DNA from: an uncultured Ectothiorhodospiraceae bacterium | GTDB taxonomy: Bacteria; Bacteroidota; Ignavibacteria; SZUA-365; GCA-2699105 | DNA length: 64,000 nt | Assembly: GCA_964408855.1 (NCBI GenBank) | Contig: CAYPBB010000010.1 | Span: 9,362-73,361 of the forward strand | Direction of reading: 5' to 3' | In this document: in pieces, positions 15,443 to 64,000 of the stretch | Layout: every line of letters starts with the position of its first letter | How positions within the stretch are numbered: position 1 is the stretch's first letter | Position numbers and translations under genes: made by a program | The notes under the pieces: model-generated | Databases searched by the model: none | The model's input: only the letters and a program-made list of their open reading frames with translations | Told to the model about the DNA's origin: nothing

Positions 15443-15461
15443 TAACCAACAAAAACATCAA

Positions 15462-16334: not shown

Positions 16335-16371
16335 CGTCTTACGCACAAACACCTAAAGATGGAGAACTACA

Positions 16372-18571: not shown

Positions 18572-18581
18572 GGTTCAAGCC

Positions 18582-28440: not shown

Positions 28441-28458
28441 ACAGCGACGGAATTCATT

Positions 28459-29889: not shown

Positions 29890-29912
29890 ACGGCGGCAGT
29901 ATTCATTACACT

Positions 29913-34981: not shown

Positions 34982-36115
<1,134 letters not shown>

Positions 36116-40970: not shown

Positions 40971-41253
40971 GGACTCCTTTCGCGGAGAGGGTGGGATGCG
41001 AATCCGGCGGACGTGTCTGCATCCGGCCACCGACGGACCGGACTTTTCTCGCCGTACGCCTCGACAGCACACGGGTATTAATAAGGAGTCCGGATCTAGG
41101 ACTCCTTTCGCGGAGAGGGTGGGATGCGAATCCGGCGGACGTGTCTGCATCCGGCCACCGACGGACCGGACTTTTCTCGCCGTACGCCTCGACAGCCCAC
41201 GGGTACTAAAAAGGAGTCCGGATCTAGGACTCCTTTCGCGGAGAGGGTGGGAT
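40971..41253 (-). repeat. 128-bp tandem repeat (2 full units plus partial third), each with a terminator hairpin and a degenerate tRNA-Ser 3' end
   Basis: GGACTCCTTTCGCGGAGAGGGTGGGAT at 40971, 41099 and 41227; units 1 and 2 differ at 3 positions. Confidence 0.95.
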
Positions 41254-41262
41254 TCGAACCCA
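41239..41262 (-). other. 3' fragment of tRNA-Ser (T-arm plus acceptor strand), probable att core
   Basis: Minus strand TGGGTTCGAATCCCACCCTCTCCG (TTCGAATC T-loop, CCTCTCC acceptor strand, G discriminator); no tRNA 5' half upstream. Confidence 0.8.
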
Positions 41263-41481
41263 TAGCAGCCTAACTCGGCGTGTGACAATGGGTTAAATAC
41301 ACAGATTTCAAACCTTTCACATTTCTTTCACAAGTCTGAAGGCTTTCAGTGTTGCAGAGTTGCAGGCTTGCACGGCTACGATGGCTTGAGGTTCATTCCG
41401 AATCTATTTACGTTACCACCATATATGCTTAATTCGTCTGCGAGAAACGGGTCTTTGATCCCAGAATGGTCGGGGTGTTTT

Positions 41482-42972
41482 TTATCTCGCTTTTTTCGGA
41501 TTAGTTCTTGATTCTATCGATGGCGAACTTGTTTGAACATCAGAATGGTTATGCGTTTGTTCAATTCTGATTGAAGACGGTACAATTATTTCGAGTTTCT
41601 CAACACTTGTATTAGTTTGCTTAGAACTCCCGTAATTGGCGATGCACCAAGTAATAAGAAGTAAGCTGAATGCGAGAACTGCATAAAATACAGAGATCTT
41701 TTGTTTTGAATGTAGTTTGAACGATGGACTTCTCTCGCTTATCGATTTTGTCAGGTTCAATTCTGGGTAATGCTTTGACCAAATATCTTCAATTCTTGAT
41801 GAGCTCAAAACAGCACCTATTAGCAAATTGTGATACCAATGTCTGTCCATGAACCAGAAGACGCCCATCACAAACACACCTACGATTGGCATCAGAACTC
41901 CTGCAGACATCTCAAATCCAAGGACTGATATTGAGTAGTGCTCGTTTGCTAACCAACCAGTAGCAACAATAGTAAATGTAAATAGCGTTAGGGCGAAGTT
42001 CCTGATACGAAGCTCCAGGTCGTTGAAATGCATCTGAACCTCAATTGCCTTTTCCCAGATCTCCCTTGCTTCAGCGAAACGTGTGCTACGATCGTGTCCT
42101 ACATATTGCTCAAATTTGTATTGGTCTTGAATCTCCTTGTATGACTTTTTAAGGACAATCGTAGGTTCATTTGTAGATGTCTTCTTCTCCTCTTTTGCTT
42201 TTTTCTCTCGTTCTACTTCCTCATCGGACCAATGTGTAACCTCCCTTAGAAGATTGTATGCATCATTATCTGTTTCGGACCCATACTTGGCGTATATGCT
42301 ATCTACATTGACATCATTTGCCATCGCGATATCGCGATCCAGTTTGTCGCCAACGTAAATGACCTCGTCTGTTTTCAACCCGAAGTCACGAATAATAATG
42401 TTCAAGATTTCCGGGTTTGGTTTTTTTGTTTCCTTAGACAGATATCTGAACTGCGTGATTTTAGGTTCCCAGTATCCTTCTTCATAGTAACGCTTTGCGG
42501 AGGCTGGTAATCCTTCGTCGATAGGTGCATATACGAAGTCTATGAGGCCATCCAAACCCAAATGCTTTATCCGATACTTCGTGTAGAATGCACTTGACTC
42601 TGTGAAACCGACAACAAGTGTACCGGAAGCTGCTGCAAGTCGCAGTGTTTCAAGTACACCATCGTAAAGTTGAAGACTGTTCTTTTTATTGGAATTGTAT
42701 TCGTGAATAATGCTTCGTTTGTCTCCAGCACTGTCCTCAAAACGGCTCTTCTGCTCTTCGGTTAGACAATCCAATTCATGATAGAAGTGTGAAGATTCCG
42801 ACGAACCGTACTGTTGATGTAACCGTTTGAATGAAGCCTTAAGTTCTTCTCGGTCTACGGAAAACTCTTCTGCTATACGATTGAAGTATGGCTTGAACGA
42901 AGCATGCCACATACCGAGCCAATCCCAGATTGTATCATCTAAATCGGTAACGAGCATCTTAATTGCCTTCAT
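41482..42972 (-). CDS. HAD-superfamily phosphatase fused to a C-terminal three-TM domain; candidate anti-phage protein
   Basis: DLDDT (motif I), FTES (II), KKPNP (III), YVGDKLDRD (IV); three hydrophobic helices after about residue 305. Confidence 0.8.
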   Translation of the reverse strand: MKAIKMLVTDLDDTIWDWLGMWHASFKPYFNRIAEEFSVDREELKASFKRLHQQYGSSESSHFYHELDCLTEEQKSRFEDSAGDKRSIIHEYNSNKKNSLQLYDGVLETLRLAAASGTLVVGFTESSAFYTKYRIKHLGLDGLIDFVYAPIDEGLPASAKRYYEEGYWEPKITQFRYLSKETKKPNPEILNIIIRDFGLKTDEVIYVGDKLDRDIAMANDVNVDSIYAKYGSETDNDAYNLLREVTHWSDEEVEREKKAKEEKKTSTNEPTIVLKKSYKEIQDQYKFEQYVGHDRSTRFAEAREIWEKAIEVQMHFNDLELRIRNFALTLFTFTIVATGWLANEHYSISVLGFEMSAGVLMPIVGVFVMGVFWFMDRHWYHNLLIGAVLSSSRIEDIWSKHYPELNLTKSISERSPSFKLHSKQKISVFYAVLAFSLLLITWCIANYGSSKQTNTSVEKLEIIVPSSIRIEQTHNHSDVQTSSPSIESRTNPKKAR

Positions 42973-43230
42973 AGTTGCTCCTTGGGTGAAGATTGCAGCG
43001 AAAAAAGATAAAATGGATGGAAACTAAAATATGATCACTAAGGGAAAGGATCAACCTGCATCACATGTGAGATCAACGCAACTAAACCTTGGTAAATTGA
43101 GGACACCATAAGGATGATCGTGTTTGGTGCCATTTCTAACATTCTACCGACTTCCTTGCAAAAGAACAAAGAGGCTAGAAGATGACCATAGTATTGCAGA
43201 GTTGCAGACGTTTGAACGATATCGAACTAC

Positions 43231-43656
43231 TCACTCAGTTGGTTGTGAAAGCAATTTCTCTTTCAACTCCGGTTTAAAATCAAACTCCCCCCAGCCTGAG
43301 CGAGTAAGAACACATTCATCCCATCCGGAGATTATTGCATTGAGGTGAGAGAGGATATTTCTTTCTGGTTCTTTCGATTTCCCTAGATCCATTTTTCTTC
43401 GTCGCATGAATTCCAGGATATCATTGCTCTTGACCGGCATCCGTTTTTCTCTAATTAATGCGATCGTAGCTTCATAGACGGATTTCCGCACACTTCCCCA
43501 ACGCGCCGGAGAAGGTCTTTGATCAGCCACTATAGCAGGCATAGCTTTCTCAAGAAGTTCAAGAACGGCCAATTCTTTCTTCTTTAATTCAGCAATCTTT
43601 TCCCGTATTCCTACGAGGTAAAGTTCCAATTCATGACGTGTTTTATCTGTGAGCAT
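43231..43656 (-). CDS. Hypothetical coiled-coil plus winged-helix-like protein
   Basis: Heptad N-terminus; VYEATIALIREKRMPVKSNDILEFM...RSGWGEF pattern; start uncertain. Confidence 0.55.
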   Translation of the reverse strand: MLTDKTRHELELYLVGIREKIAELKKKELAVLELLEKAMPAIVADQRPSPARWGSVRKSVYEATIALIREKRMPVKSNDILEFMRRRKMDLGKSKEPERNILSHLNAIISGWDECVLTRSGWGEFDFKPELKEKLLSQPTE

Positions 43657-43860
43657 ATCCATATCAGACTCACAATAAACATAGGCATAAATCACGTCCA
43701 TTTCAATCTCAAAGAGATTTATCCTCTTGCTAATAAGAGAGAATGTATGAAACTCTCTTATTATTTGCAAGAGTTTTTGCTCTTGTCGGTGAGTTTTTCT
43801 ACTTTTGGTACAAAATCATCACCGATTGTCATCCACAACCTGTGCACTATTAGAAATACG

Positions 43861-44442
43861 ATGAAATCCGACGAGAAAGACGATATGTCCGGAATACATG
43901 AACTATTCGAAGAATTTGGGCTGAAGCTCAAAAACAACCCAACCTCCGAAGAACTGAGATTCTTGCTTGAAAAGTTTATCGAAGAAACGCGGTTCACGCT
44001 CGCCTATCTGAATGAGTATGGAGCAATCACTAAGGTTGCACTCACTGAACTCTTTGGCGCTCTTGTCATGCTTATCAAATCCGAAAACGAAAAGACAGCG
44101 AATGTACAGGGTACGATTCAAAAGGCACTTGATCTCTTGAAAGCCATTCACATGAACACGGAACTGTCGCCAGAACAAGTCGTTGCGTACAGAGAAGACG
44201 TTTTTCGAATCATCGATGAAGCACGATCAGAAGCAGCTGAATCGAGACAATTCAACAGAGAAATCTTTTATGTGGCGTGCTATGTTGGTGGCGGTGTCGT
44301 ATTGACTACTATTGGCGTAGGTGTTTGGATGTTAACAAAAGGCCAGAGTTCTGGAATGCTAGCGAAGGGCGGCCAAATGGCTATGAAGGGCATTGATGCA
44401 GCTAAATCTGTATGGCACGCTAAAAAGGTTATTGGTAAGTAG
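43861..44442 (+). CDS. Hypothetical helical protein with C-terminal Gly-rich hydrophobic segment
   Basis: ORF from MKSDEKDD; FYVACYVGGGVVLTTIGVGVWMLTKG. Confidence 0.6.
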   Translation: MKSDEKDDMSGIHELFEEFGLKLKNNPTSEELRFLLEKFIEETRFTLAYLNEYGAITKVALTELFGALVMLIKSENEKTANVQGTIQKALDLLKAIHMNTELSPEQVVAYREDVFRIIDEARSEAAESRQFNREIFYVACYVGGGVVLTTIGVGVWMLTKGQSSGMLAKGGQMAMKGIDAAKSVWHAKKVIGK

Positions 44443-44501
44443 GTCTTAAGTATACTCCACTGAAGCGATCAAATGATATTAACACAGGGATTCAGAATGC
44501 T

Positions 44502-45470
44502 ATGATCAAAAACATTTGCCTGTCCAGGCTTTTCGTCGCATTTTCTTTGAGCATCATCATGGCAGCATGCTCAGATCCTGAGTACAAGAACCAGATAAAC
44601 AGCGAAGGGCAGAGAGATGGATATTGGAAGCTATACCTTGACAAAAGTTATAAACCCACGCCCCTCGAAGTCTTAGCTCCTTTTTATGCCTTGCTCGAAT
44701 ACGACGATGGTGCGATAGACAGCGATGTTATGATCCATTATAGAACTGGTGAACTGCATTGGAAGGGAACACTTTTATCGTTTTCACCATTCCGAGTAGG
44801 AGATGGTGTAAATCATTTTTATCACAGAAATGGTACACTGCAAGCCAAGATTCCAATAAAGGACCAACAAATACATGGAAACGCTATTGAATGGTTTGAG
44901 TCTGGGAACAAGCAACGTTCATGTTCATATGCACATGGTTTAAAGGATGGAGTAGAAACAATATGGGATGCACAAGGATGTAAGACTGCGGAAATCCACT
45001 GGAACATGGGGAAGAAATATGGCACAGAGATCACCTGGTTCAATGTGGATAAAATACGAAGTTACACAGAATGGAAAAACGACATTTTGCATGGTAGGAA
45101 AATGTATTATGATCTAGGATTCAAAATAGTTGAGAACTATAGCTACGGGCAATTAAATGGTATTCGGGAAGAATACTGGCCGAACGGAGATCTCAGAGTT
45201 ACGACATCATATCTAAACGGGATAAAGCATGGACCGGAGATTGGATATTACAATGATGGGAGAAAGAAAAGCCTAATAAACTGGAATACTGGCTTAGAAA
45301 ATGGTATATGTCAATGCTGGCATCCAAATGGAGTCAAAGAAGAAGAATCGACTTACAGCAATGGTAAACAAACCGGAATCCAAGTCACATGGGACTCACT
45401 AGGTAATATCACAAGTAAAAGCGAATGGGACAATGGCAATTTCTTGGGTGTAACGTATGAAAGGAAATGA
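44502..45470 (+). CDS. MORN-variant repeat lipoprotein (YwqK antitoxin-like)
   Basis: Lipobox MAAC; repeats; LHWKGTLLSFSPF matches LFWKGVLMSFTPF of 31355-32449. Confidence 0.8.
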   Translation: MIKNICLSRLFVAFSLSIIMAACSDPEYKNQINSEGQRDGYWKLYLDKSYKPTPLEVLAPFYALLEYDDGAIDSDVMIHYRTGELHWKGTLLSFSPFRVGDGVNHFYHRNGTLQAKIPIKDQQIHGNAIEWFESGNKQRSCSYAHGLKDGVETIWDAQGCKTAEIHWNMGKKYGTEITWFNVDKIRSYTEWKNDILHGRKMYYDLGFKIVENYSYGQLNGIREEYWPNGDLRVTTSYLNGIKHGPEIGYYNDGRKKSLINWNTGLENGICQCWHPNGVKEEESTYSNGKQTGIQVTWDSLGNITSKSEWDNGNFLGVTYERK

Positions 45471-45639
45471 CTCGATAATTCTGCATAGGGTTACTTGACT
45501 TTTACATAATATCATATATATTGTACGTGTGGGCAATATACCTAACCACCCCTGCAAACCTCAAAAATCCCCAACTGCAAACTCATTGCCAAGAACAACG
45601 CTCACAATATAGCTGTTGCATTTAAATATGTAGTATAAC

Positions 45640-45668
45640 TTGACAATACCAATTATTTATAGTATACT
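45640..45668 (+). promoter_or_regulatory. Consensus sigma70-type promoter of the replication module
   Basis: TTGACA-17 bp-TATACT, about 60 bp before the RBS CAGGAG and ATG 45731. Confidence 0.65.
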
Positions 45669-45730
45669 CTACTATTGAAGCCCATTAGCAAAATGTTCGT
45701 TATATTAATCAACAGACAGGAGTTTATTCC

Positions 45731-46015
45731 ATGAATACCTTTGATACACGAGATTTCTATCTCGCTTGTTTCCTGCATACAGAAGGGATAAGACTCTCTG
45801 GCCATTCGCGAGATGGCTCCAGAGTGATCTTTCATTTCAAGCTAACCGAAGAAACTGAAAACCTAGTGGATAAATATTTCCGGATGGACGCAGAAGTCAA
45901 TCCGATTGAGTACAGCTCGTCTATCAAGCATTTGAAGCACGTGATGTACGACTATACACCGATAATATTGGAGAATGAAGAATGTACAACAACACAGAGA
46001 ACACTAATGAACTAA
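45731..46015 (+). CDS. DUF5659-like small phage/satellite protein
   Basis: TRDFYLACFL...G..L.....GSRVIFHF pattern. Confidence 0.65.
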   Translation: MNTFDTRDFYLACFLHTEGIRLSGHSRDGSRVIFHFKLTEETENLVDKYFRMDAEVNPIEYSSSIKHLKHVMYDYTPIILENEECTTTQRTLMN

Positions 46016-48147
46016 ACTTCACATTTTCGTACGCAGAAAATCCCAATTTAATGGGATGGCTGACAAAATTCGAAACCAAAACAATCCCCACACCGGAACT
46101 CAACGAGTTCTTCACCACATACACATACAGTACAATAATCTGGGACGGACAAAGAAACGGAGATAATTTTTCCTATGCTGTAGGAGGAATTCTAGACTTT
46201 GACAATAAACCCGATGATGAGAGACAGTGGACTATAGATGAAGCAGTAGCTGCGTTTGAGGCAAACAATATGGCCTATGCATTGATCACCAGTAAATCAC
46301 ACACCTCGGACATACCCAAATTCCACGTATTTATACCGTTTAATAGAGTAGTTTATAACGTCGATGATTACAGACGGGTTATGCACTATCTAGTACATGT
46401 ACTGTATCCAGGCAGTGATAAAAAAATAAAAGATGGCGGCAGACAGATATTCCAAAGTCCGAAGAGCGCAATTTACCGTGATAATTTTCGATTACCATGT
46501 TTCAATATAGATACTGCAGCTTATCTGGAACCGGCAACTAGCCAGACATTGGTTTCGAGTTCTGCAGTGCCTACAGTAAAATCGTATAAACCGACGACAG
46601 CCAGTGCGAAGCAAAGAGATATTGAAACTATCAATAAGTCAGATGCATGGAAACCGGGTACGAAAGTACGCCTTGGAAATGGTTCAGTCGTTGCCATGGA
46701 TAGTGTCACGAAGTTAAATCGCGCTTTCTGTAATTGGCATGAAGTATCTGATAGACCATCGGCGGTTGTTGGATATTCTGAACGAAGCAGAAACCATTTC
46801 ATGCATTGTTTCAAGTGCAAAACTACCTTTTGGAAAGTCATGGATATAGATGTTACTCTCGCTAACTTCTATTCCTTTGGAAAATCTATCTATGAAGCAA
46901 GCATTTCCAACAACCTCTTTTACTTCACAGATATCGGAAAAGACAAGCTCGCAATATGAACTGGTGCCCCAACCAAGGAAAAGGCCGAGGAGTATTACCG
47001 TAAAGTAGTTAACGAGAAACATCTAGCAGTAACGCCAGCAGTAGAATACTATGGCAATCCTGATATCACGACTGCTCGGTTTGAACTTGACATGAGTAAA
47101 TGCAAAGCCAAGGTAGAGATTCCGCCAATACAGACCGATATTGATGACGATCAATTCATTGAGGATTACCTTGACCAGGTATTTGGTGAATACAAGGAGA
47201 CGATCAAACTCTACATGGCTCTTGTGATCTTCAGTAATTACCGACGACTTCCGACGCTAATCCTCACAGGAGCCAGATCCGCCAGTAAAACGACATTTGC
47301 GAACTTGTTATCTGCTGCATACCATTCAATGAGTACGACAATCCAGACAGTTCTCACGAGCTTTAATCCCTGGGCTGGGAAGAAAATCGTGACTCTTGAT
47401 GAGGGAGCTTCAGAAGGCAAGAGCCAGTATCGCGAGTTTAAGCGTATTTCAGGAGGAGAATGGATTTCTATCAACGAGAAATACAAAAACGAGTATAAGG
47501 TTCGGAATAATTCAACCCTTATCATACTCAGTAACGACATGTTTCCGATTACAGTCGAAGAAAGCGAAATCCCAACTGACGAAGCAGCGAACCAATTCCT
47601 GGTACTAAGACTTAGTAAACTCAACAAAACCCCCGACCCCCTTTATGGCAAAAAATTGGAAGAACGTTTAGGACACTATATTCAGAATGTTCTGCGTTCC
47701 ATCTATGATAGTCACGATACTTCTGTTTCTCGATACGGGATGTTGGTACCCATAACGGAATGGGAGGAACAGCTCTTCAAGAACAGCATGACAGAGACGG
47801 ATTACGTAATCGAATCGCTCATTGACGCGTTAGTCGATATACTAAACGGAAGTTCTGACTTTTACTCGTCGGATGACACACTAAAATTTGCACTTGAGGA
47901 AGGATATGTTCCAAAGGAAGTCATTGACAAGATCGCCAAGGAACATAAGATGAAAATCTCAGAGATCCACGAACGATTAACTTCAAAAGGTCTTTGTGAA
48001 CCACTCCGAAAGCAGGCAACCGAGAAATATGAAAGACCACAAATAAACGGGAAACGTCCCAGATGCCGGGAAATGACAAATGACCTGAAAACTATGCTGG
48101 ACGAATTGAAGTCTACGAATTCAGCACCAGATTTGTTCGGTGAATAA
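45982..48147 (+). pseudogene. Primase(-polymerase)-like/Zn-finger/DUF5906-type SF3 helicase fusion interrupted by one in-frame TGA (46957-46959)
   Basis: Both track ORFs (45982-46959 and 47092-48147) share one frame and the gap is open (AI*TGAPTKEKAEEYYRK...); TSKSH..KFHVFIP, CNWH...HCFKC, TGARSASKTTF, VTLDEG, IILSN motifs. Confidence 0.75.
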
Positions 48148-48149
48148 CA

Positions 48150-48400
48150 AAAATGGTCCAACCTGGTCCAGGATTGTCCAGGTAACTCGGACCGTGTAAC
48201 TTGTTGATTTATACATAGTTATCTATTGCCGTCCAGGTTGTCCGGTTTTTTATAAATGTACTACGCGAAAAAGAGATTATAGAGATAATAGTTTTCTGTT
48301 TTTCCTGGACAAACCGGACAACAAAACTTAAGTTATTGATATGTATATATTTACAACGTCCCAAAAACTTGGACGAACTTGGATCACTAATCCGGTCCAC
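48150..48400. promoter_or_regulatory. Candidate replication origin (GTCC/GGAC iterons around an AT-rich core)
   Basis: Multiple GTCCA(G)/GGAC motifs; inverted repeat GTTGTCCGGTTT (48237-48248) / AAACCGGACAAC (48311-48322); directly downstream of the helicase. Confidence 0.55.
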
Positions 48401-48431
48401 ATAAACGAAAATGAAATTAAGGTGAAGCATC

Positions 48432-48830
48432 ATGAATATACTTGATACACTAAAACAGCACCCCCGGTTAACAATATCGGGGTACGACGGAGACCCAAAT
48501 GACCCTGAATACGAAGTAAAACGCAATCAACTGAGAATTGAGATGAATTCGTTGGAAATCGCGATCGATTACCTTGAGAGATGTCAAAAGACAAAGGGAT
48601 TCGGTATGACCTACTCTATAGACAGCTACGTTTTGAAACACCATATGGAAGGAAGCAGCCGGGGATACGGCCCTCGAAAGGGATACGTGAGCCAAGGGAC
48701 CGCGATTCTAGCCTGTTTACTGGCGGGATACAAAATAAAACCCGGCGAGCCTTCAGAGCCGAACGTACGTATTGCACTCAAAGAACCAAAACATCGAGTA
48801 GTAGAAACCGCCCTTTTATGGCAGCAATGA
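48432..48830 (+). CDS. Hypothetical protein typical of primase-linked satellite modules
   Basis: DSYVLKHHMEG...YVSQGTAILACLLAGY pattern. Confidence 0.65.
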   Translation: MNILDTLKQHPRLTISGYDGDPNDPEYEVKRNQLRIEMNSLEIAIDYLERCQKTKGFGMTYSIDSYVLKHHMEGSSRGYGPRKGYVSQGTAILACLLAGYKIKPGEPSEPNVRIALKEPKHRVVETALLWQQ

Positions 48831-48867
48831 GGTAACGTGAGTTAATTTTCCCATTTTGTTACTACAT

Positions 48868-48943
48868 TGAAAATAGTATAGACTATTCTGATAGAAAATC
48901 GTTAAATTATTATTTATCGCATAAATAGTCTATACTATTTTCA
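48868..48943. repeat. 20-bp perfect inverted repeat with 36-bp spacer
   Basis: TGAAAATAGTATAGACTATT ... AATAGTCTATACTATTTTCA; each arm contains AATAGT-N4-ACTATT. Confidence 0.85.
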
Positions 48944-49375
48944 TCCAAAAGTGATAATCCCCTAGAAAATGGGTCCCATACCCCACCCCCCCGGGAGTGG
49001 AGTCAGACTGCCATACAAAACAAACCCGTTTTCTGGAGAGAATTCGGGTTTCGATTTTTTTTTGCCCATATTTTGGGAACCCCATTAGCGATTTTGCCCC
49101 GGATTCTAGAAGAGTCTTCCTTTTTACCGCGATAGGATTCACCAAGATCGCCCCGAAGATGCTATGTCCTATATTACTTGACACTTACAACAGCACGGCC
49201 CCTCTGATGCTGCCATCCTCCCCCAGCATTACGTTTCCATCAAATTGCTCATACATATTTCGTCATTCTGCACAATTTTCGTAAGTTTGCCCTTACAGTT
49301 TCAGAAATCTCAGTGTTTTTCGGTGACAATGGACGACCGTTAAAACGGGGGCCCTACCAAGTAAGTGAGAGTATT

Positions 49376-55837: not shown

Positions 55838-55904
55838 CTATATCTCAATGGATGTTATACGAATCTAGATTGTCAATAAGTGATAATGCATTGATACTGA
55901 GGTA

Positions 55905-58517
55905 ATGATGATATACGTAATTGTTGATTCACTTGCACTATTTTCATTTATTTGTTGTTTGTTTCAATCGGCATTTGCGCAATCTGTGAATCCTGTGGGT
56001 ACGTCACTAGAGGTTTATGAATCATCTAACTCTATAAGTGTTGGTATTGTTTCAATTTCGCAAATTAATTCACACTCTTTCCTGCATGAACTGCGCTCAG
56101 GTGGAAACGGCTCCCTCATCGCATCCATTCCCGATCAATTGAAAGGCATGCCAACGTCCATCGCCGTTTTCGACCATACTATCCTAATCGGCTACCAGGA
56201 CTCAAACGAAGTACTCTTTTACAACTGTGTAACCTCTGCACAAACTTCCATCAAGTCTCCGAACAAGCATCTATTCGGTACTACTATCTCCAATGTCGCG
56301 AGTAGCTCTGGTCATGATTATTTTTGTGTTGCAGCAGAAACGTCCGGACAGGTCTTTCTGTATGATGGGCTCCCTAGTGCATTTGACCTATACGAACAGG
56401 TTCTTGAAGGTCTTCCCAGTTCTGGCTATGGACGAAGCTTGAGAGTTATTGACAATCTCACGGGCAATAATAAACCGTACGTTATTGTAGGAGGCCCATA
56501 CACATCAGATTCACTTATGGAGTACGGGAAGATTTACCTGTACTCAGGCCAACCGTTTGTCTTGGTGGATTCGATTTCAGGACCATGTGAATACTCGCAT
56601 TTTGGATCATCTCTTTCATCGGGCGATGTAAACGGCGACAGCTATCACGATCTAGTAGTAAGCGCCCCTGGCTCGGGAAATCATCACGAAGGAGCTGTCT
56701 ACGTGTACTACGGAGGGCCTCATTTCGATACAACCCCGGACAAAGCCTACTACGGGACACAGGCAGACGAATTGTTCGGTAACTCCATTCTTGCAGTAGA
56801 TCGTCGAACTGCTATGATTGGTGGCCTCGCGATTGGCAGCTACAATGCATCGCACAATGGCCAGTCCCGCAACGGCGCCTTGCACTGGTACAACATCACA
56901 AATCCACCGAACAGCAAAGCGGATACGGTGATCTATGGCGAAGCATCAAGCGATCACATGGGCTGGGCTTCTGCATTCATGTCCAAGTCTGCCACCTCTG
57001 ATTCCTGCGCAATACTCTACTCGTCACCGTACAATAGCTCGGCCAACAGTATTGAAGGCAAGGTGCATGTACTGGACCTCTTCAAACCGCGAGTCAAAGG
57101 ATTCGTAATCAATACATACCCGGAAAACATTGGCCTTAAGATCAAGGTCGAAAACAAGGAGTATCGGGACGGAGTCACTCTCGAATCAATCGTCGGAACG
57201 CCCTATCTGTTGTATACACAGGAAGTGCAGTATTCAGACTCGACTAATCAGCAAGTTCGCTGGCGTTTCGACCGGTGGAGTGATGGTGGAGAAAGAATCC
57301 ACAACGTCACCGCCGAAGAAGGAACTGTGATTACGGCATACTTCAAGAAAGAGGTAATGATTACATCGAGCGTCCTTCCGAACTGCGGCTCAACAGGTGT
57401 GTACGGTACAATCGAAGGTAATGAGTGGCATCAGGTGGGAACCTCGGAAACGCTCACCGCTATTCCGAGTCCCGGCGCAATGTTTTCGGGTTGGGAAGGC
57501 GCGGTCTCTCAAACCTCAGAGACTTTGACGCACGACTTCACTGAACCAACCACAGTTATTGCACGCTTCAAACTTCAGAATCCTGAAATAGACGATGTAC
57601 TCAACACGAGCATCAGCAGCAACGACCTGTCGATGGATATTTACTGGCATGATAATGCAAAAGGATTGGCAGAAGTTTGGACACTTGAGCGTAAATCATC
57701 TGTTGGAAATACGTGGAGTGAAGTAGCAACGCTCATCACGGGAAACAGTCCATACAGGGATACACACCAGCTCATCGAAAAAAGTAGCTATGCCTACCGG
57801 TTAAGAGCGAATTCATGCGATCCGACCAGCAATTCAGGCTATGGCGATATAGACCTTACAACGGTATTGGGGATGGATTCTGTCGTCATAGTCGAACCGC
57901 AGCCTCCGCTTGTAATTCAATATGACGACAATCACAATCCACTCGGAAATTTCCTGGTGAAGTTTTCACTCACGAACAAAACCGTGGATGAGTTCGAAGA
58001 CTCTCTTACTACGGAATTCATGGTCATGTCTGGGAATGTAGCATTGGCACCAGGTGAGATAGCATCGAAGCCATACTATGGTATCTTCACGACACAGGAG
58101 AATTACATCGCTACTTGGGAATGTGTCCCTGCGTATCAACCGTCAGACGACCTGGCAGTTGTCGCAATCAGATACTACCGCACCCCAGAACGCGCCGACA
58201 CTGCCTACAGTGAACCAATCGAGATTACACATACGATTGTCGGAATAGAATCGCCTCCTTCGGTACAATCGTACCGACTCTTTCAGAACTATCCCAATCC
58301 GTTTAGCGGCAACACAACCATTCTCTTCTACGCCAGTTCAAGCGCGACTGTCTCTTTGGTCATCCATGACATACTTGGCCATCCCGTGTACAAACGTGGA
58401 ATAGAGCCTACCGTAGGCCTCAATAGAATTGACATCAGCGGACTCCCATCCGGATCATATCTCTACGTTCTCCAAACTAATGAAGGATCGTTGTCCGGGA
58501 TAATGATAGCAAGATAA
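55905..58517 (+). CDS. T9SS-secreted FG-GAP/integrin-alpha propeller protein with InlB-type repeat and FN3-like domains
   Basis: Signal peptide; GDVNGDSYHDLVVSAPG...GAVYVYYG; FDRWSDGG, FSGWEG; LFQNYPNPF...SGSYLY CTD. Confidence 0.85.
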   Translation: MMIYVIVDSLALFSFICCLFQSAFAQSVNPVGTSLEVYESSNSISVGIVSISQINSHSFLHELRSGGNGSLIASIPDQLKGMPTSIAVFDHTILIGYQDSNEVLFYNCVTSAQTSIKSPNKHLFGTTISNVASSSGHDYFCVAAETSGQVFLYDGLPSAFDLYEQVLEGLPSSGYGRSLRVIDNLTGNNKPYVIVGGPYTSDSLMEYGKIYLYSGQPFVLVDSISGPCEYSHFGSSLSSGDVNGDSYHDLVVSAPGSGNHHEGAVYVYYGGPHFDTTPDKAYYGTQADELFGNSILAVDRRTAMIGGLAIGSYNASHNGQSRNGALHWYNITNPPNSKADTVIYGEASSDHMGWASAFMSKSATSDSCAILYSSPYNSSANSIEGKVHVLDLFKPRVKGFVINTYPENIGLKIKVENKEYRDGVTLESIVGTPYLLYTQEVQYSDSTNQQVRWRFDRWSDGGERIHNVTAEEGTVITAYFKKEVMITSSVLPNCGSTGVYGTIEGNEWHQVGTSETLTAIPSPGAMFSGWEGAVSQTSETLTHDFTEPTTVIARFKLQNPEIDDVLNTSISSNDLSMDIYWHDNAKGLAEVWTLERKSSVGNTWSEVATLITGNSPYRDTHQLIEKSSYAYRLRANSCDPTSNSGYGDIDLTTVLGMDSVVIVEPQPPLVIQYDDNHNPLGNFLVKFSLTNKTVDEFEDSLTTEFMVMSGNVALAPGEIASKPYYGIFTTQENYIATWECVPAYQPSDDLAVVAIRYYRTPERADTAYSEPIEITHTIVGIESPPSVQSYRLFQNYPNPFSGNTTILFYASSSATVSLVIHDILGHPVYKRGIEPTVGLNRIDISGLPSGSYLYVLQTNEGSLSGIMIAR

Positions 58518-58539
58518 GAACCTAAATTCGGGGTCACGC

Positions 58540-58580
58540 GAAAGGCACACATCTGGTCAAATGCACTGGGTGTGCCTTTC
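58540..58580. terminator. Hairpin between convergent units
   Basis: GAAAGGCACAC ... GTGTGCCTTTC. Confidence 0.55.
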
Positions 58581-58743
58581 TGTAATTGAACTAGCAATCT
58601 CCTCGCTGAAAGAAGTTTCTACCCATCCCCCCCAGCGTGTTGACTAAGAGTTCCCTAACTCAAGACCTGATTACCTGGAAAGGGTACGGCCTATATTTAC
58701 CTACCCCCGGGTCTTCGATTCTGAGAATTTTCTGGGGGATTGT

Positions 58744-59451
58744 TCACCCTATCACCGTCCTTTCCAACCGGTCCTTCCAGCGCTCCCAGTCCGGCATGGC
58801 TGCCGACATCAGCCGGTAGAATTTCTTGTCGTGATTTGGATGAACTAGATGGCAAAGCTCATGTATGATGACGTAATCGATACACACGAGCGGGGCTTTT
58901 ATGAGTTCGGTGTTCAGCGTAATGGTGCCATGGCCGGTGCAGCTCCCCCAACGTGATGTCATCGTTCGCAAGATGATTTTGGGATATGCAGCGCCTCGTT
59001 TAGCGAACCAGGGGTAATACCCATCAACCTTCCGGTTGAACATTTCTGATGCATGCTTCCGGTACCAATCTCGCATCACTTTTTTAGCTGAGGAAGAATC
59101 CATTGGCTCCGGTAATTCTACCTCAAAGAACTTCCCCACTAGCCGTACTCGTCTCTTCTCGCCTAGTCTGATTTTCAATCGATATTGCCGCCCCAGGTAG
59201 TAGTGCGTTTCTCCGCTCACGTATTCACGTGGAGGTTGAAGAGGGTGGAATTGGTCGAAATAGTTGAGTTGCTTCACAATCCAGGGTGCTTTGCGAAGAA
59301 TTCTAGACTTTACTTCCTCCAGCGGCTTTCCACTTGGCACTATTGCTTCGACTCTCATATCCGGATGCACATTGATCGTCAAGGACCTACGATCACGTTC
59401 GTGAACGATTACAACAAACCGTGTACTTCCATATTCGAAGAATAACTTCAA
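58744..59451 (-). CDS. M48/YgjP (DUF45) family metallopeptidase associated with type I R-M
   Basis: YVSGETHYYLG, MTSRWGSC, YVIIHELCH..HPNH...FY; directly downstream of hsdR. Confidence 0.9.
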   Translation of the reverse strand: MKLFFEYGSTRFVVIVHERDRRSLTINVHPDMRVEAIVPSGKPLEEVKSRILRKAPWIVKQLNYFDQFHPLQPPREYVSGETHYYLGRQYRLKIRLGEKRRVRLVGKFFEVELPEPMDSSSAKKVMRDWYRKHASEMFNRKVDGYYPWFAKRGAAYPKIILRTMTSRWGSCTGHGTITLNTELIKAPLVCIDYVIIHELCHLVHPNHDKKFYRLMSAAMPDWERWKDRLERTVIG

Positions 59452-59457
59452 GGTCTA

Positions 59458-62400
59458 CTACCTTTCTTCCCTGCTCTGGGCAATAGCAAGACACCGATCC
59501 ATAATCTCATCGAACTGGTCCACATCCACAGACAACCCATCATCCAACGCTTCGAAGAGCAGATCATCCAGTTCATTTCGCATCTTGTTCTTTTGTGGTT
59601 CGTTGTAGTACCAGTTCACAATGCGTAGACGATTGATGACCTCATCTATTTTAAGACACAACTCTGCTGTTTTTTCAGCATCCGAATCGCCCGAGAAATT
59701 CTTGATGCTTCGAAAATATGCAGCCGCGACATCATTGTTTTGCAACCTGGCCGGCAGATCGTCTCCGCGTCTCGTACGAACTTGCTCCTCAAACTGTCTT
59801 ACCTTCGATAGATACTCGCTCTCACTGATACGCTTGTTACGAAAATCGTCGATCGTAGCCTGGATCAGTTCAGAGAAACGCTTATAGAATTCCGGATCCC
59901 TGTCCCAAAGCTCATTGATTGATTTCTTTGTCCTGTGAGCGATTGTGTCAGCTTTTGCTGCATCTGTTGAGAGCGCATCAACCTCAGCCTGGAATGCATC
60001 TTTCTCAAAGATGTTTACGGGTGCAATTATCGTTTCTACCTCTTCAGCACCAACGTACGTGTCAAGTAGTCTCTTGATTTTCGGTTCGTACTCTGCGAAG
60101 TCTACACTTTCGGCGAACCTGCGTCCCAGGCTGTGACGAATCTTGTTATAGCGTTTCAGATCTTGCTTGTACATCTCAATTGTAGCTGCAGGAGTAATCT
60201 CGTGGAACCTGACTGTCGATAGGGCCATTTCCATGACGTTCGCAAACTCTCGGAGGTTAGCATAGAACTTATCCCGTTCCGATCGTTCAGTCAGAAACTG
60301 CGCAATCTCCTCTGTGTCGTAGCGATTTCTTAGCGTTGTGAACTGACCGACCAGGACACTGTGTTTCTGCTTGACATCAGGCAACTGTTCTTTCACATCT
60401 GTCAGCAATCCTACCAGGTCTTTCGCGTCGAAATCTTCGAGCTTCTCGTAGAGCTTCAAAGCATTATCCAGCTCGCCAAGCACTCCGCGATAATCGATGA
60501 TGTAGCCATATTCCTTGGCTTCATACAGTCTGTTCACCCTGGCAATTGCCTGTAGGAGTGTATGCTCTTTCAGCATGCGAATGAGATAGAGAATAGTATT
60601 CCGAGGGGCGTCAAATCCTGTAAGAAGCTTATCGACGACAATGATTATCTCCGGATCGTCAGCGTTCTTGAAATTGGTGATAATCTGCGTATTGTACTTC
60701 TCCTCGCTTCCCCAACGGTACATCATCTTCTTCCAAAAGTCCAGCACGTCGTTCTTGTCGTCGTCACCTTCGATTTCACCTTCGCGATCATCGGGTCCGG
60801 AGATAAGAACCTCCGATGTCACCCGCTTAAAGGAATCAAGGTATTTCTTGTACTTCAATGCCGTAGCTTTGCTGGACGTTACCAGTTGAGCTTTGCGGTC
60901 CTTTCCTTTCCAGTTGTCAGCGAAATGCTCACTTATGTCCCAGGCAATTCTCATTATTCGCTGTTCAACGTTGTTGATCTGATCAGTGCTGGAGTACCGT
61001 TTCTTTAGGTCATTTGCTTCTTCCTTTGACAGCCTTTTTGTGACTTTCTCAAACCAATCGTCAATACTCTCCTTTTGTACGATTTGCTGAGAATGCCGAC
61101 CTTCGTAAAGTAACGGGACGACGGCTCCATCATCCACTGCTTGATTGATCGTATAGGTATCGATCAATCCACCAAACCGTTTTATGGTATCCTTTTCATT
61201 TCTTCTAACCGGCGTCCCTGTGAAGCCAATGAAACATGCCTTTCTCAACACGCGCTTCATTGCGCTGTGCAGTTTTCCATATTGAGTACGGTGCCCCTCG
61301 TCGACAAGCACGAAGACTTCTGTGCTGTCGATTGGCGCCTTCATCTTTACAAGCGCCGTCTCGAACTTATCAATGACTGTTGTAATGATACTGACATTAC
61401 GCCGTTCCAACATCTCGGCAAGATGTTTCCCGGATTTCGCTCTCTCCGGCTCCAGGTTGCAGTCAGAGAATGTATTGTAGATCTGCTCATCGAGATCAAC
61501 ACGGTCAGTAACGACGACGATTGTTTCGCCTTTAATCGCAGGTGACTGAAATATCCCTTGGACCAGCATCACCATACTTAACGACTTCCCACTTCCTTGC
61601 GTATGCCAGACCACTCCGCCTCTACGAGTCCCATCTTCATCAAATTCCAGTATCCTTTGCAGCATCTTTTCAACAACGAAATACTGCTGATACCGTGGTG
61701 TTTTTCGGACTCCCCTATCGAAGATGCTATATGACCGTATATTCTTGAGCAAGCGCTCACGGTTACAAAGCGCAAACAACAACCGGTCCTGCTCCGTTAC
61801 CATGCGATCGACATGATATTCGTTGGTTTCCTCGTTGACCACTCGTCCGCCCGGGATTGCGAGAGCACGGAGCTGTTCATTACTTAGACTCAGGTCGAAT
61901 ACCCTTTTTACGTCATCATCTGAATACTCGCGCTCCTTCCATACCGACCAGTACTCTCGTGATGTACGGACAGTCCCGTACTTTGCTGCACTCTCGGCCA
62001 CTGCAATCAGGAGTTGGGCGTAGTGAAACAGGCGTGGGATTTCATCCTCGTTCTGGTTCTTTATCATTTGATTGACAGCCTGGTCAACCGGGTCTGTTGT
62101 ACCTGGCGCCGCCCTGTCCTTACATTCGATGACCACTACGGGGATGCCGTTGATGAACAGCACAATGTCGGGTATTCGGTGCTTGTGCATACCAGACCGC
62201 TCTACCTTGAACTCCTCAACGACGTGGTAAACGTTACGATCCGAATTTTCCCAGTCGATGTAATGCAGTGTTTTGCTTTTAACGTCCTCACTTACTGTAA
62301 ACGATTTCCCATGTGTTAGTATCTCGTGGATTTTCTGATTCGTGGGGATAAAGCCACTTTCCTCCCTGCGCTTCAGGTCAAGCACAGCATCGCGGATAAC

Positions 62401-62622
62401 AGTCTCCGGGAAACGATGCTTCTTCCCAAGATGTTCATATTCTGCGTTTTGTTTGAGCCATTCACTAAGAACTTTCTCAAGTAAAACATTCGAGTAATCC
62501 TCCCCGCGTAGTTCGTAGACCTCGCCATCTGACAGATACTCCCAGCCAAGCTTTTGCAAAAGTATCAGGGCAGGGAGCTTGCTCTGTTCGTCCTCGTTGT
62601 GCTGGTGGATGTAGATTGCCAT
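59458..62622 (-). CDS. hsdR: Type I restriction enzyme R subunit
   Basis: PDIVLFINGIPVVVIECK nuclease motif; HTQGSGKS, VDEGHR, FTGTP, LLTGFDAP, LLQAIARVNR helicase motifs. Confidence 0.97.
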   Translation of the reverse strand: MAIYIHQHNEDEQSKLPALILLQKLGWEYLSDGEVYELRGEDYSNVLLEKVLSEWLKQNAEYEHLGKKHRFPETVIRDAVLDLKRREESGFIPTNQKIHEILTHGKSFTVSEDVKSKTLHYIDWENSDRNVYHVVEEFKVERSGMHKHRIPDIVLFINGIPVVVIECKDRAAPGTTDPVDQAVNQMIKNQNEDEIPRLFHYAQLLIAVAESAAKYGTVRTSREYWSVWKEREYSDDDVKRVFDLSLSNEQLRALAIPGGRVVNEETNEYHVDRMVTEQDRLLFALCNRERLLKNIRSYSIFDRGVRKTPRYQQYFVVEKMLQRILEFDEDGTRRGGVVWHTQGSGKSLSMVMLVQGIFQSPAIKGETIVVVTDRVDLDEQIYNTFSDCNLEPERAKSGKHLAEMLERRNVSIITTVIDKFETALVKMKAPIDSTEVFVLVDEGHRTQYGKLHSAMKRVLRKACFIGFTGTPVRRNEKDTIKRFGGLIDTYTINQAVDDGAVVPLLYEGRHSQQIVQKESIDDWFEKVTKRLSKEEANDLKKRYSSTDQINNVEQRIMRIAWDISEHFADNWKGKDRKAQLVTSSKATALKYKKYLDSFKRVTSEVLISGPDDREGEIEGDDDKNDVLDFWKKMMYRWGSEEKYNTQIITNFKNADDPEIIIVVDKLLTGFDAPRNTILYLIRMLKEHTLLQAIARVNRLYEAKEYGYIIDYRGVLGELDNALKLYEKLEDFDAKDLVGLLTDVKEQLPDVKQKHSVLVGQFTTLRNRYDTEEIAQFLTERSERDKFYANLREFANVMEMALSTVRFHEITPAATIEMYKQDLKRYNKIRHSLGRRFAESVDFAEYEPKIKRLLDTYVGAEEVETIIAPVNIFEKDAFQAEVDALSTDAAKADTIAHRTKKSINELWDRDPEFYKRFSELIQATIDDFRNKRISESEYLSKVRQFEEQVRTRRGDDLPARLQNNDVAAAYFRSIKNFSGDSDAEKTAELCLKIDEVINRLRIVNWYYNEPQKNKMRNELDDLLFEALDDGLSVDVDQFDEIMDRCLAIAQSREER

Positions 62623-62626
62623 GTTT

Positions 62627-64000
62627 TTATTGTCCCTCCAACGCAGAAAACATCTTGTTAATAAAGCCTACTAACTCTGTGCGAGTCAATTCTCTTTCAG
62701 GTATAAAATCATCTATCTGATGACTTTCAGCGTTTGCTATTACCCTAATTTCGTTCAGCATTTCTGTCTTTTTATCGCTGATTAACGACCTATGTTTCAA
62801 TTCAGCGATCTTTGCTGACAGTTTGTCAATCTTTGATATGTACCGATAATATTGTCTGTTCAATACACCTTCTAATACATCTCGCATGAGATGTTGAATA
62901 TAGCTGATTGATTGCCCTGAATCATTTCTACAGTAGTCGTCTAACTCCTCTACTTTTTGCGCAAAACTATCTTTTGCGAATTCAGATGGATCACAGCGTT
63001 CATACCTGCTGCCAGTATCATCACAGCGAATTTCGAACTCTCCACTAACACCATATTTCTTCTTATCCCGGTAGTACTTTTGATGTTGAATAGCAACACT
63101 TTTCCGATGTGTTAACACAATTGTTTGCAAGCAGTCGGACGAAAGAGTTGCAATAATCTTTGCAGTCTGATATCTTCGGTCATCATCCATGCTTGTTAAT
63201 GGATCATCGTAGATCACAATTGTATCCGATAGTTTTGGATCGTACTTCAGCGATGCAATGAAGAATGCAAACGCAAGAGAATTCCGATCTCCACCGCTGA
63301 GTATATTCTTGAAACAAGGGACATTTTCACTCGAAGAGAGTGGAGCACCTTCACCGTTGATCACAATCTCGAATTCTGCGAGTTTACCCATCCTCTTGTC
63401 AGTCTTTTCTTTAAATGACCGAACAGAAAACGATGTATTCAGTTCCTTCAGTACTCTGTTTATCTCATCTTCGTAGTTGGAGAAGTTTCCAAGATACTTA
63501 TTCAGTTTGTCCTCGATTTCCTTGAACTTATCATCTGCTTTTTCTTTCTCTTCCTTGGCAGAATTGTAGCCAGTCACCCATACCATTCCCTCTTCAGTGA
63601 ATCGAAATAGGCGATGCTCGAATCCGCGCGTCTTTTTCTTCGCGTCTTCAATGCTGGCCGGACTCTCAGCCCGCTCTTTAAACGATGTTACCCTCTCATT
63701 GAGCGTCTTAATTTGTTCATTTATATCTGTCACAATCTGTTGAATCACAGATTTGGCGTCTTTGTACTTTTCTACGGCACCAGGTTCTGCCGTGCGATTG
63801 AGGTCTTCCACTTTTCGATTGAGTTCATTCTTCAGTGCTTCAAATGCTTTGCTCAACTGAGTCTTGAGTGCTTCCTGATCAACATCTTCGGTCAGAGAAC
63901 CTGAGAGCTCCTCCTTGATAATACTCGACCAGGAACTTATTTGGGCATCAATTTTCTGTATCTCAAGAATGAGCTTGTCTATGATGGTGTTAGCATCAAA
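62627..64000 (-). CDS. RloC-like AAA_13/SMC-type ATPase with C-terminal HEPN-like domain (5' end outside the window)
   Basis: Frame open to 64000; long coiled coil, LSGGDRNSLAFAFF signature, IVIYDDPLTSMD Walker B, IVLTH; HLMRDVLE...IANAESH. Confidence 0.75.
   Translation of the reverse strand, partial: FDANTIIDKLILEIQKIDAQISSWSSIIKEELSGSLTEDVDQEALKTQLSKAFEALKNELNRKVEDLNRTAEPGAVEKYKDAKSVIQQIVTDINEQIKTLNERVTSFKERAESPASIEDAKKKTRGFEHRLFRFTEEGMVWVTGYNSAKEEKEKADDKFKEIEDKLNKYLGNFSNYEDEINRVLKELNTSFSVRSFKEKTDKRMGKLAEFEIVINGEGAPLSSSENVPCFKNILSGGDRNSLAFAFFIASLKYDPKLSDTIVIYDDPLTSMDDDRRYQTAKIIATLSSDCLQTIVLTHRKSVAIQHQKYYRDKKKYGVSGEFEIRCDDTGSRYERCDPSEFAKDSFAQKVEELDDYCRNDSGQSISYIQHLMRDVLEGVLNRQYYRYISKIDKLSAKIAELKHRSLISDKKTEMLNEIRVIANAESHQIDDFIPERELTRTELVGFINKMFSALEGQ

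Follow-up and report, generated by a model that had tools for sequence, protein, structure and literature searches.

The window analysed here comprises 64,000 nucleotides (nt) of the 98,699-nt contig CAYPBB010000010.1 (GenBank assembly GCA_964408855.1), which belongs to an uncultured soil bacterium placed in the Ignavibacteria by its GTDB lineage. At positions 41239–41262 it carries the last part of a tRNA-Ser gene, and from there to its right-hand end it is filled with AT-richer DNA, in which a small replication module is combined with genes predicted to act against phages and against competing bacteria. An earlier note, made from the letters alone, had interpreted this arrangement as the attachment (att) junction of a tRNA-Ser-integrated, satellite-like element; the junction and the island have stood up to the analysis, and the satellite label has not. 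We regard it as reasonably probable (at about 0.6) that 41239–41262 represents a displaced tRNA-Ser 3′ end at the distal junction of a large genomic island, which would have entered by site-specific recombination in the T-arm. We see in the element a tRNA-linked genomic island of an ordinary kind, whose host is a poorly known soil bacterium, and no phage satellite that can be demonstrated as such; what carries this reading is an exact tRNA-Ser 3′ end in the right orientation, its start at the T-stem, the hairpin on its 3′ side and a compositional break that is both sharp and sustained.

The tRNA-Ser fragment and its flanking repeats

The left border of the foreign DNA is formed by the following features:

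41239–41262, minus strand: displaced tRNA-Ser 3′ fragment of 24 nt, an exact match to intact tRNA-Ser 3′ ends; att-type junction
41206–41238, minus strand: terminator-like hairpin followed by a T-run, with arms at 41211–41219 and 41227–41235 and a 7-nt loop, as read from the sequence
40971–41226, minus strand: two 128-nt tandem units, each starting with a hairpin arm and a tRNA-Ser 3′ end that has degenerated (2 mismatches); the perfect fragment makes up the third, partial copy

When written in tRNA sense, the fragment (TGGGTTCGAATCCCACCCTCTCCG, 24 nt) comprises four of the five bases of the T-stem 5′ arm, the T-loop, the T-stem 3′ arm, the 3′ strand of the acceptor stem and the discriminator base. 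The plus-strand 25-mer CGCGGAGAGGGTGGGATTCGAACCC (41237–41261) has three matches in the window at up to three mismatches, one of them perfect and two with 2 mismatches (at 40981 and 41109), and at the same tolerance 100 dinucleotide-preserving shuffles yielded no match at all. In reverse complement it is identical to the 3′ end of an intact tRNA-Ser(CGA) on a prophage contig from IMG/VR (L002, 13955–14043), where a tyrosine integrase lies directly upstream of the tRNA gene, and the same 3′ end occurs in at least 119 genome stretches from many phyla. In an alignment with 30 tRNA-Ser genes from Bacteroidota, Ignavibacteriota, Chlorobiota and Calditrichota, identity ends at the T-stem 5′ arm.

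This geometry can be compared with that of the islands in tRNA genes (tDNAs) gathered in the Islander collection. There, the island restores the tDNA that it splits and the displaced fragment marks the island's end, a principle that holds for thousands of cases; 3′ fragments are found in 3760 of 3919 islands, the T-stem region and the anticodon loop are the two usual crossover classes, and T-stem-region sites account for 1836 of the 3919 (PMC4383910). The boundary of the present fragment coincides with the canonical crossover sublocation in the T-stem region, and the fragment lies at the end of the island in the orientation required, with foreign DNA on its 5′ side and the terminator-like hairpin on its 3′ side. 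Both the att-junction geometry and the statement that only the last 24 nt of a minus-strand tRNA-Ser are present, as proposed in the earlier note, are thereby borne out. No intact tRNA was found anywhere in the window by ARAGORN or by Rfam at gathering thresholds; a relaxed Rfam scan gave as its sole significant match the plastid motif RF04351, whose consensus holds the T-arm complement GGGAUUCGAACCC and which we take to be the antisense of trnS.

The hairpin (AAGGAGTCC-GGATCTA-GGACTCCTT, 41211–41235) lies directly 3′ of the fragment and is followed on the minus strand by TTTTT; this position also places it downstream of the Hydrolase-TM gene described below, and a consensus terminator scan did not list it. 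Terminator and repeats had been placed to the left of the fragment before, and they are indeed found there, the repeats forming an array from 40971 to 41258 with about 2.2 copies (2.27) of the 128-nt unit and 97% matches. The units themselves also carry degenerate copies of the tRNA end, which in tRNA sense read GGATTCGCATCCCACCCTCTCCGCG. The two left copies share an identical pair of substitutions and begin at the same T-stem position as the fragment, and the leftmost is provided with a terminator-like hairpin of its own (40977→40954). An array of 2.27 copies leads back to an ancestral state of 35 nt, 93 nt and 35 nt that was amplified by unequal crossing-over. Since the degenerate copies share the T-stem start, they are probably older att-type scars amplified in this manner, and the presence of such extra att-like copies suggests that the site was used repeatedly. 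Neither in the rest of the window nor in the loci compared up to L128 does the 93-nt unit body recur. Tandem units acting as tRNA genes or as structured RNA were considered and rejected, as neither ARAGORN nor Rfam matched them and their fold z-score (−1.9) is no better than that of shuffled sequence. Short-read contigs from all three soil samples break at the array, those of the left flank ending inside the repeat, at 41000.

A further observation in favour of the junction concerns a metagenome-assembled genome (MAG; MAG26, JAHLLH010000012.1; L042, stretch 6767–7990), in which the last 58 nt of a tRNA-Ser(CGA) gene, from the anticodon loop onwards, lie 170 nt from the gene of an aldo-keto reductase (AKR) that is 51% identical to the AKR encoded at 34982–36106 of the window, with the same geometry. 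Here, too, a tRNA-Ser site would seem to be occupied, and the AKR and tRNA-Ser genes possibly share an old synteny.

Composition and extent of the foreign block

The DNA on the two sides of the fragment was compared with core reference genes, namely pst/phoU, a UvrA paralogue and a large protein of the type IX secretion system (T9SS). To the right of the fragment, the content of guanine plus cytosine (GC) falls to 0.40–0.48, against 0.53–0.58 in the core and 0.53–0.60 in these core genes; every open reading frame (ORF) from 41.3 to 64.0 kb has a third-position GC content (GC3) of 0.38–0.55, against 0.60–0.75 in the core; and the tetranucleotide correlation with the core lies between −0.12 and 0.32 in each 4-kb interval of this region. 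The part of the earlier note that called the AT-richer right-hand side foreign is thus upheld, the sequence being alien as far as position 64000.

The same type of DNA continues beyond the window. An exact 40-mer from the right-hand end of the window had no match in the genome and metagenome contig collections searched, and HsdR, the AAA_13 fragment, the FG-GAP protein and Cthe_2159 had no exact protein counterpart on record, whereas YgjP and the full AAA_13 protein led to contigs that extend the sequence. In one soil study, three runs gave Logan contigs that agree with the window at 100% identity in all overlaps; two of them (L123 and L124) bear out that the RHS gene, the FG-GAP gene and the restriction-modification (R-M) operon are contiguous, and a further one (L125), which overlaps the window by 1550 nt at 100% identity, reaches the window-equivalent position 74,972. 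The 11-kb extension provided by L125 keeps a GC of 0.40–0.50. Because identical contigs carry low-GC DNA for 11 kb past the end of the window, the island measures at least 33.7 kb from the junction, in agreement with the minimum of 22.7 kb previously claimed and well above it. The larger ORFs scanned across the window gave no match to an integrase, transposase, relaxase, capsid, portal or terminase domain, and the earlier statement that capsid, terminase and conjugation genes are missing agrees with the outcome for Pfam and PHROGs, neither of which yielded any.

Replicon core, its relatives and the cargo

Two blocks can be told apart within the island: an 8-kb block of very low GC, which holds a fused Hydrolase-TM gene and a replicon core, and a second block, in which genes for an RHS toxin and for an FG-GAP protein with T9SS sorting are joined by a type I R-M operon, with candidate defence ATPases embedded in it, and by a PLD-domain gene. 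The replicon core and its border comprise, with lengths of proteins in amino acids (aa):

45731–46015, plus strand: DUF5659 small protein (Pfam, 1e-10), the first core gene, overlapping the start of the replicase gene
45982–48147, plus strand: primase-helicase replicase with a BT4734-like/AEP-like N-terminal domain, a Zn ribbon and an SF3/D5-type DUF5906 NTPase
48149–48356: candidate replication origin directly 3′ of the replicase gene, with five TKGTCCRG sites (three plus, two minus) around an AT-rich core
48432–48830, plus strand: core gene for a 132-aa protein of no known family, with a homologue after the replicase in L132
48868–48943: perfect inverted repeat of 20 nt, with a spacer of 36 nt, where the low-GC replicon block meets the RHS block

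The primase-helicase and origin core described in the earlier note is recognizable, with DUF5659, primase-helicase and an origin-like site all present and the replicase interrupted by a TGA codon. The C-terminal half of the replicase matches DUF5906 in Pfam (1.2e-15); the replicase also matches the C-terminal model of P4-family primases, TIGR01613, at 8.7e-10, which is below the cut-off of that model, as well as the PDB 'Primase' entries 6k9c (1.7e-11) and 6k9e. Its N-terminal domain is weakly BT4734-like/AEP-like (hhalign to BT4734-like_N: probability 51%, E = 1.6e-4) and is followed by a CxxH...CxxC ribbon. The in-frame TGA, at 46957–46959, splits the gene into ORFs of 325 aa and 351 aa in the same frame. 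An exhaustive HMMER search with the 325-aa ORF yielded 140 relatives, the best of which are mostly 650–720 aa long with DUF5906 in the C-terminal half, and the 721-aa read-through product is colinear with two fused relatives (685–706 aa), including the 44 'intergenic' codons and with no gap at the stop. The TGA is identical in an independent assembly (L001). Recoding was rejected: TGA terminates five other island genes and three host genes, and is for this reason an ordinary stop in this genome. We conclude that the stop in the replicase is either a recent nonsense mutation or a tolerated split; the replicase of one relative (L003) is naturally split, at another position.

Of the ten TKGTCCRG sites in the window, five fall within a stretch of 158 nt in the candidate origin (48164–48321), against about 0.02 expected, and further inverted repeats (I2, I5 and I6) are present there, so laid out that the site resembles an origin of the iteron type. 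The 132-aa protein has no family or PDB match, and its counterpart on L132 was found by tblastn at 35% identity (1.4e-11).

The combination of DUF5659 and replicase is kept in four unrelated contigs (L003, L132, L133 and L134). In L003 the order is HTH_17, DUF5659, BT4734-like primase, DUF5906 and variable genes; L132, from the Tara marine metagenome, has DUF5659, a fused replicase and the homologue of the 132-aa ORF; and in L133 the pair is found amid small GIY-YIG and HNH genes. The core members so far come from one soil lineage, an Ignavibacteria MAG and the Tara (marine) contig. Only DUF5659, the replicase and the 132-aa gene are common to the window and its relatives, and no HTH regulator was found upstream of the window's DUF5659 gene, in contrast to HTH_17 in L003 and HTH_3 in L134. 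The replicase family had no matches in GenBank phages or PLSDB plasmids, and it is practically absent from IMG/VR, where one single-protein and two alignment queries gave none or one weak match.

The most informative relative is L134, a 362-kb contig of the Ignavibacteria MAG (Joint Genome Institute, JGI, Ga0393737_000002), with which the Logan contig L135 is identical over a 16.7-kb overlap. Here the core genes of the host stop at an intact tRNA-Asn gene (5342–5414), and a 540-aa ORF that had not been called, whose 3′ end overlaps the 3′ end of the tRNA-Asn gene (in the stretch 5245–6997), encodes a large serine recombinase of the A118/TP901-1 type. Beyond it lie genes for an HTH_3 repressor, for DUF5659 and for an intact 681-aa replicase, followed by small ORFs and by PDDEXK/REase, Schlafen-AlbA_2 and Mrr genes, with GC increasingly low; the DUF5659 and replicase core lies about 4.5 kb from tRNA-Asn and the recombinase. 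L134 (MCU7490531.1 family) thus shares with the window a DUF5659 and primase-helicase core (29–38% identity), its adjacency to a tRNA gene and the nuclease-type defence cargo that follows, and differs in its tRNA-Asn target, the serine recombinase abutting the tRNA gene, the HTH_3 repressor upstream and a replicase that is fused and intact. Because L134 shows the core beside tRNA-Asn, a recombinase and nuclease genes, the replicon family lives in tRNA-linked integrative elements with defence cargo, and L134 is the best outside support for the general idea of the earlier note. Serine recombinases are not the usual tDNA integrases; the one in L134 means that the recombinase need not be of the tyrosine type. 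As the core is recurrent in integrated elements of Ignavibacteria and on the Tara (marine) contig, and absent from the phage and plasmid collections and practically so from IMG/VR, it could be used as a marker for integrative elements in these phyla. It is a more speculative and rather doubtful proposal that DUF5659, the AEP-like primase/SF3 helicase, the iteron origin and the 132-aa protein define an undescribed integrative replicon family of the Fibrobacteres–Chlorobi–Bacteroidetes (FCB) group, which would insert at tRNA genes and shuttle defence and competition cargo, maybe with helper-dependent, satellite-like transfer. Apart from this, a degenerate second copy of the 5′ part of tRNA-Asn was seen about 100 nt upstream in L134.

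Around the replicon core, the island and its continuation on L125 hold the following cargo:

41482–42972, minus strand: Hydrolase-TM fusion of 496 aa, with a HAD-type hydrolase and a transmembrane C-terminal part (Pfam HAD_2, Hydrolase)
43231–44442, both strands: divergent ORF pair of no known family, one of 156/179 aa (minus strand) and one of 231/269 aa (plus strand), the latter with a C-terminal transmembrane segment
44502–45470, plus strand: MORN_2-repeat protein (Pfam, 4.8e-14), with an N-terminus that resembles a lipoprotein signal by eye
49313–55837, plus strand: RHS/YD-repeat polymorphic toxin of 2174 aa (Pfam RHS_repeat, 1.2e-116, 18 stretches; DUF6531)
55905–58517, plus strand: FG-GAP repeat protein of 870 aa with a T9SS C-terminal sorting domain
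58744–64000, minus strand: promoter-distal end of a type I R-M operon, with the next three genes
58744–59451, minus strand: YgjP-like metallopeptidase, after hsdR
59458–62622, minus strand: HsdR
62627 to past 64000, minus strand: AAA_13/PDC-S06 ATPase, 781 aa in full
L125, away from the window: ORFs of 246 aa and 174 aa, a 202-aa PDC-S54-like protein, HsdS, a KAP NTPase (PDC-S49), HsdM, half an HsdS, and a PLD-domain, ZacB-like protein of 904 aa

The defence and competition cargo announced in the earlier note is confirmed in so far as Hydrolase-TM, type I R-M and RHS genes were identified through Pfam and PADLOC, their roles being predicted ones. The 496-aa ORF is matched by the PADLOC models Hydrolase (9.7e-61, aa 5–292) and Hydrolase-TM (5.3e-24, aa 304–462), and because both models match one ORF it represents a fused variant of the two-gene Hydrolase-TM system, with a predicted role in defence. 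For the divergent pair at 43231–44442 no match was found in Pfam, PHROG, NCBIfam, PADLOC or PDB, and a single-sequence AlphaFold model of the 156-aa protein was unusable (predicted local distance difference test, pLDDT, of 50). The MORN_2 protein at 44502–45470 is only 24–25% identical to the MORN proteins encoded at 31–33 kb. The RHS protein has the typical features of an RHS/YD polymorphic toxin, with a YD-repeat shell, a conserved core end, which aligns with TccC and Rhs structures, and a variable C-terminal tip, the last ~170 aa being without a match; CWB2 repeats are inserted at about aa 1520–1610, inside the RHS-repeat region. No small ORF of the immunity type follows the RHS gene, the next gene being that of the FG-GAP protein. 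The R-M operon is of type I, as HsdR is encoded in the window and HsdM and HsdS on the 100%-identical L125. The PLD-domain protein of 904 aa has relatives only at 45% identity or less.

As a further observation, the R-M locus (58744–64000 and L125 2652–12346) is unusually decorated: five extra genes lie between hsdM and hsdR, encoding PDC-S49, a PDC-S54-like protein, two uncharacterized proteins and AAA_13 (PDC-S06), and the locus also includes the YgjP gene after hsdR and half an hsdS before hsdM.

Nature of the island

If the remnant is a recombination junction, its history may be reconstructed as follows. The element's own copy of the tRNA 3′ end would have restored the tRNA gene at the far, right-hand end, while the original 24 nt with their terminator were left at 41239–41262, where they are found; the junction would accordingly be the work of a recombinase, with an intact tRNA-Ser gene further to the right. 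By precedent, this enzyme would be a tyrosine integrase; the sole related element with a visible recombinase, however, has a large serine recombinase. The excised circle may have been replicated from the candidate origin by the primase-helicase. Given that a TGA now cuts the replicase, the element would probably be decaying or immobile, and its present role may be that of a fixed 'multi-conflict' island with anti-phage and anti-competitor functions for the host. With its two compositional blocks, the inverted repeat where they meet and a broken replicase, the island is probably composite and possibly decaying.

It is nevertheless important to stress that several observations weigh against a single island bounded by this junction. 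A search of the 33.7 kb turned up neither a recombinase gene nor an intact tRNA-Ser, and likewise no T-loop motif and no second att copy of at least 12 nt; as regards the 11 kb of L125, neither a tRNA, a T-loop motif nor an att sub-match of at least 12 nt was detected, and recombinase domains were seen neither in the ORFs at 41.3–64 kb (Pfam) nor in the called genes of L125 (precomputed Pfam and PADLOC), among which two ORFs lacked any match. As regards an empty site, a 35-mer spanning the tRNA end and the hairpin is absent from JGI metagenomes; none of the genome loci listed with the 25-mer has a homologous left flank; and no close relatives were found among the GTDB-representative loci listed or in the JGI metagenome scan. 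The flank to the left, at 27–41 kb, is not pure core either, as its correlation is only intermediate (0.5–0.88), and the term 'native-looking' used in the earlier note therefore holds in a relative sense only. The interior of the island is a mosaic in composition, the block at 42–50 kb having a correlation of about −0.1 and a GC of 0.41, and that at 50–64 kb a correlation of 0.2–0.3 and a GC of 0.45–0.49. Moreover, the replicon core of L134 is placed beside the recombinase and points away from the tRNA gene, whereas that of the window is placed at the end with the fragment and points towards the presumed tRNA; and the in-frame stop in the replicase belongs among these points as well.

A rival reading is that of tandem or accreted islands, in which only the low-GC block of about 8 kb (41.26 to ~48.9 kb) would be the remnant of a small integrative replicon that has lost its recombinase end, and the RHS, FG-GAP, R-M and PLD genes would stem from other islands that arrived later at the same tRNA gene or by other routes, with the internal att site deleted. 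The two compositional classes (42–50 and 50–64 kb) fit accretion, as do the perfect 20-nt inverted repeat at the block border, the fact that relatives share no more than DUF5659, the replicase and the 132-aa gene, and the already broken replicase; tandem arrays at tDNAs are known, with 125 in Islander (PMC4383910). However, the stretch from 41.27 kb to the window-equivalent 75 kb holds no att copy, nor so much as 12 nt of one, no remnant of a recombinase was found at the block border, and a mosaic composition is normal within single large islands, so that accretion is possible but on balance unlikely. Still less probable is an origin without any integration, whereby the 24-mer would be the stump of a tRNA-Ser gene or pseudogene cut by deletion or rearrangement, or the end of a 128-nt repeat with tRNA-like ends, and the low-GC DNA would have arrived in some other way. 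Integration alone does not yield three tRNA-like ends in an array whose unit holds non-tRNA sequence and a hairpin, and the partner att site was not found in the DNA searched; yet the T-stem arm, at which the stump precisely begins, is the canonical crossover position (PMC4383910), it is the perfect copy that adjoins the foreign DNA, the composition changes at the stump, and the body of the repeat unit has no second location among the sequences compared.

An active satellite of the P4 type or of the type of phage-inducible chromosomal islands (PICI), or else an integrative mobilizable element (IME), which would excise, replicate and be packaged or mobilised by a helper, is in our view highly improbable. 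What speaks for it is a primase-helicase of the superfamily of the P4 alpha C-terminal part, here again with TIGR01613 below its cut-off, next to an iteron-like origin, together with defence genes beside the att site, as in the hotspots of P4 and PICI, the lack of structural genes, and the existence of satellites in Flavobacteria and other marine taxa (PMC9618062). Known satellites, in contrast, have medians of 9.5–14 kb and span about 7–20 kb in SatelliteFinder, very few exceeding 20–30 kb (PMC10085698), whereas the present island runs for at least 33.7 kb without the other end or an integrase being reached, i.e., two to three times the known sizes. The integrase and the AlpA-type or repressor regulator of a satellite were not found in the 33.7 kb, nor were an AlpA/HTH_17 gene, a small terminase, a capsid-remodelling gene or a relaxase; a hijack module (psu/delta/sid, small terminase, capsid morphogenesis or a capsid of its own) had no match in Pfam or PHROG, with the limit that small ORFs without a family could still qualify. 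A replicase and origin are present, but the replicase carries an in-frame stop, and its family is essentially missing from the viral and plasmid collections named above. Membership in P4, PICI, capsid-forming PICI (cfPICI) or PICI-like elements (PLE) was accordingly rejected on size and the hijack module, with integrase and regulator not found (PMC10085698), and the designation of the element as P4/PICI satellite-like is not sustained. The designation as an IME is not supported either, no relaxase domain having been found in the ORFs scanned. Since satellites in FCB taxa are by now not unknown (PMC9618062), the argument from novelty is weaker than the earlier note assumed.

The tRNA-linked island preferred here has its closest parallels elsewhere. 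Bacteria acquire defence and competition genes most commonly by way of tRNA-linked islands, and one more such island is therefore not surprising. With the Islander tDNA islands it shares a correctly oriented displaced 3′ fragment, the T-stem crossover and an anomalous composition, and with Islander sizes peaking at 13.6 and 39.9 kb (PMC4383910) it lies in the upper range; unlike in those islands, a regenerated tDNA and an integrase were not found in the 33.7 kb, and the fragment sits in an array with two degenerate copies. VPI-2, a pathogenicity island of Vibrio, of 57 kb, is likewise a large tRNA-Ser island, with a tyrosine integrase (IntV2), type I R-M genes among its accessory cargo and attL/attR direct repeats (PMC3014918). 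VPI-2 belongs to another phylum, no sequence relationship is expected, and its excision has been shown, whereas the present island is known from sequence alone.

Closer in host are the mobilizable transposons NBU2 and MTnBf8 of Bacteroides, which also insert at tRNA-Ser in the FCB group, with attR next to the tRNA gene. NBU1 of the same type encodes a primase-like gene. Elements of this type are shorter than 15–17 kb and carry integrase and mobilisation genes (PMC13597742), whereas the present island is more than twice as long and shows neither integrase nor relaxase; assignment to an NBU-type element or IME was rejected on size and on the absence of a relaxase in the ORFs scanned (PMC13597742). 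In its cargo, the island resembles the 'multi-conflict' islands of Serratia, in which anti-phage systems including Hydrolase-TM and R-M lie beside toxins of interbacterial competition (bioRxiv 10.1101/2024.01.28.577318). Those islands, however, are hotspots between core genes in Enterobacterales, whereas here defence and competition cargo is co-located in a tRNA-linked island whose host is an uncultured soil bacterium of the FCB type, and the RHS gene is accompanied by no visible type VI secretion system (T6SS) or immunity gene. An island combining a fused Hydrolase-TM gene with a heavily decorated type I R-M operon thus exists in a soil lineage of the FCB type, and, with a single stop in an otherwise intact replicase, the element may have been caught at an early stage of immobilisation.

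Two further regions of the window were noted in passing. A second compositional island at 12500–18600 (GC 0.42–0.45, correlation with the core 0.16), between the UvrA paralogue and an FAD-dependent protein, consists of a minus-strand gene for a PKD-domain protein and four consecutive ORFs (290–415 aa) without a Pfam match; no tRNA or recombinase was found nearby. At 26962–31343 lie three tandem paralogues (476–492 aa) with T9SS sorting, the two closest pairs of which are 32% and 39% identical, and these are followed by two MORN_2-repeat genes, GC3 being lowered throughout (0.49–0.55).

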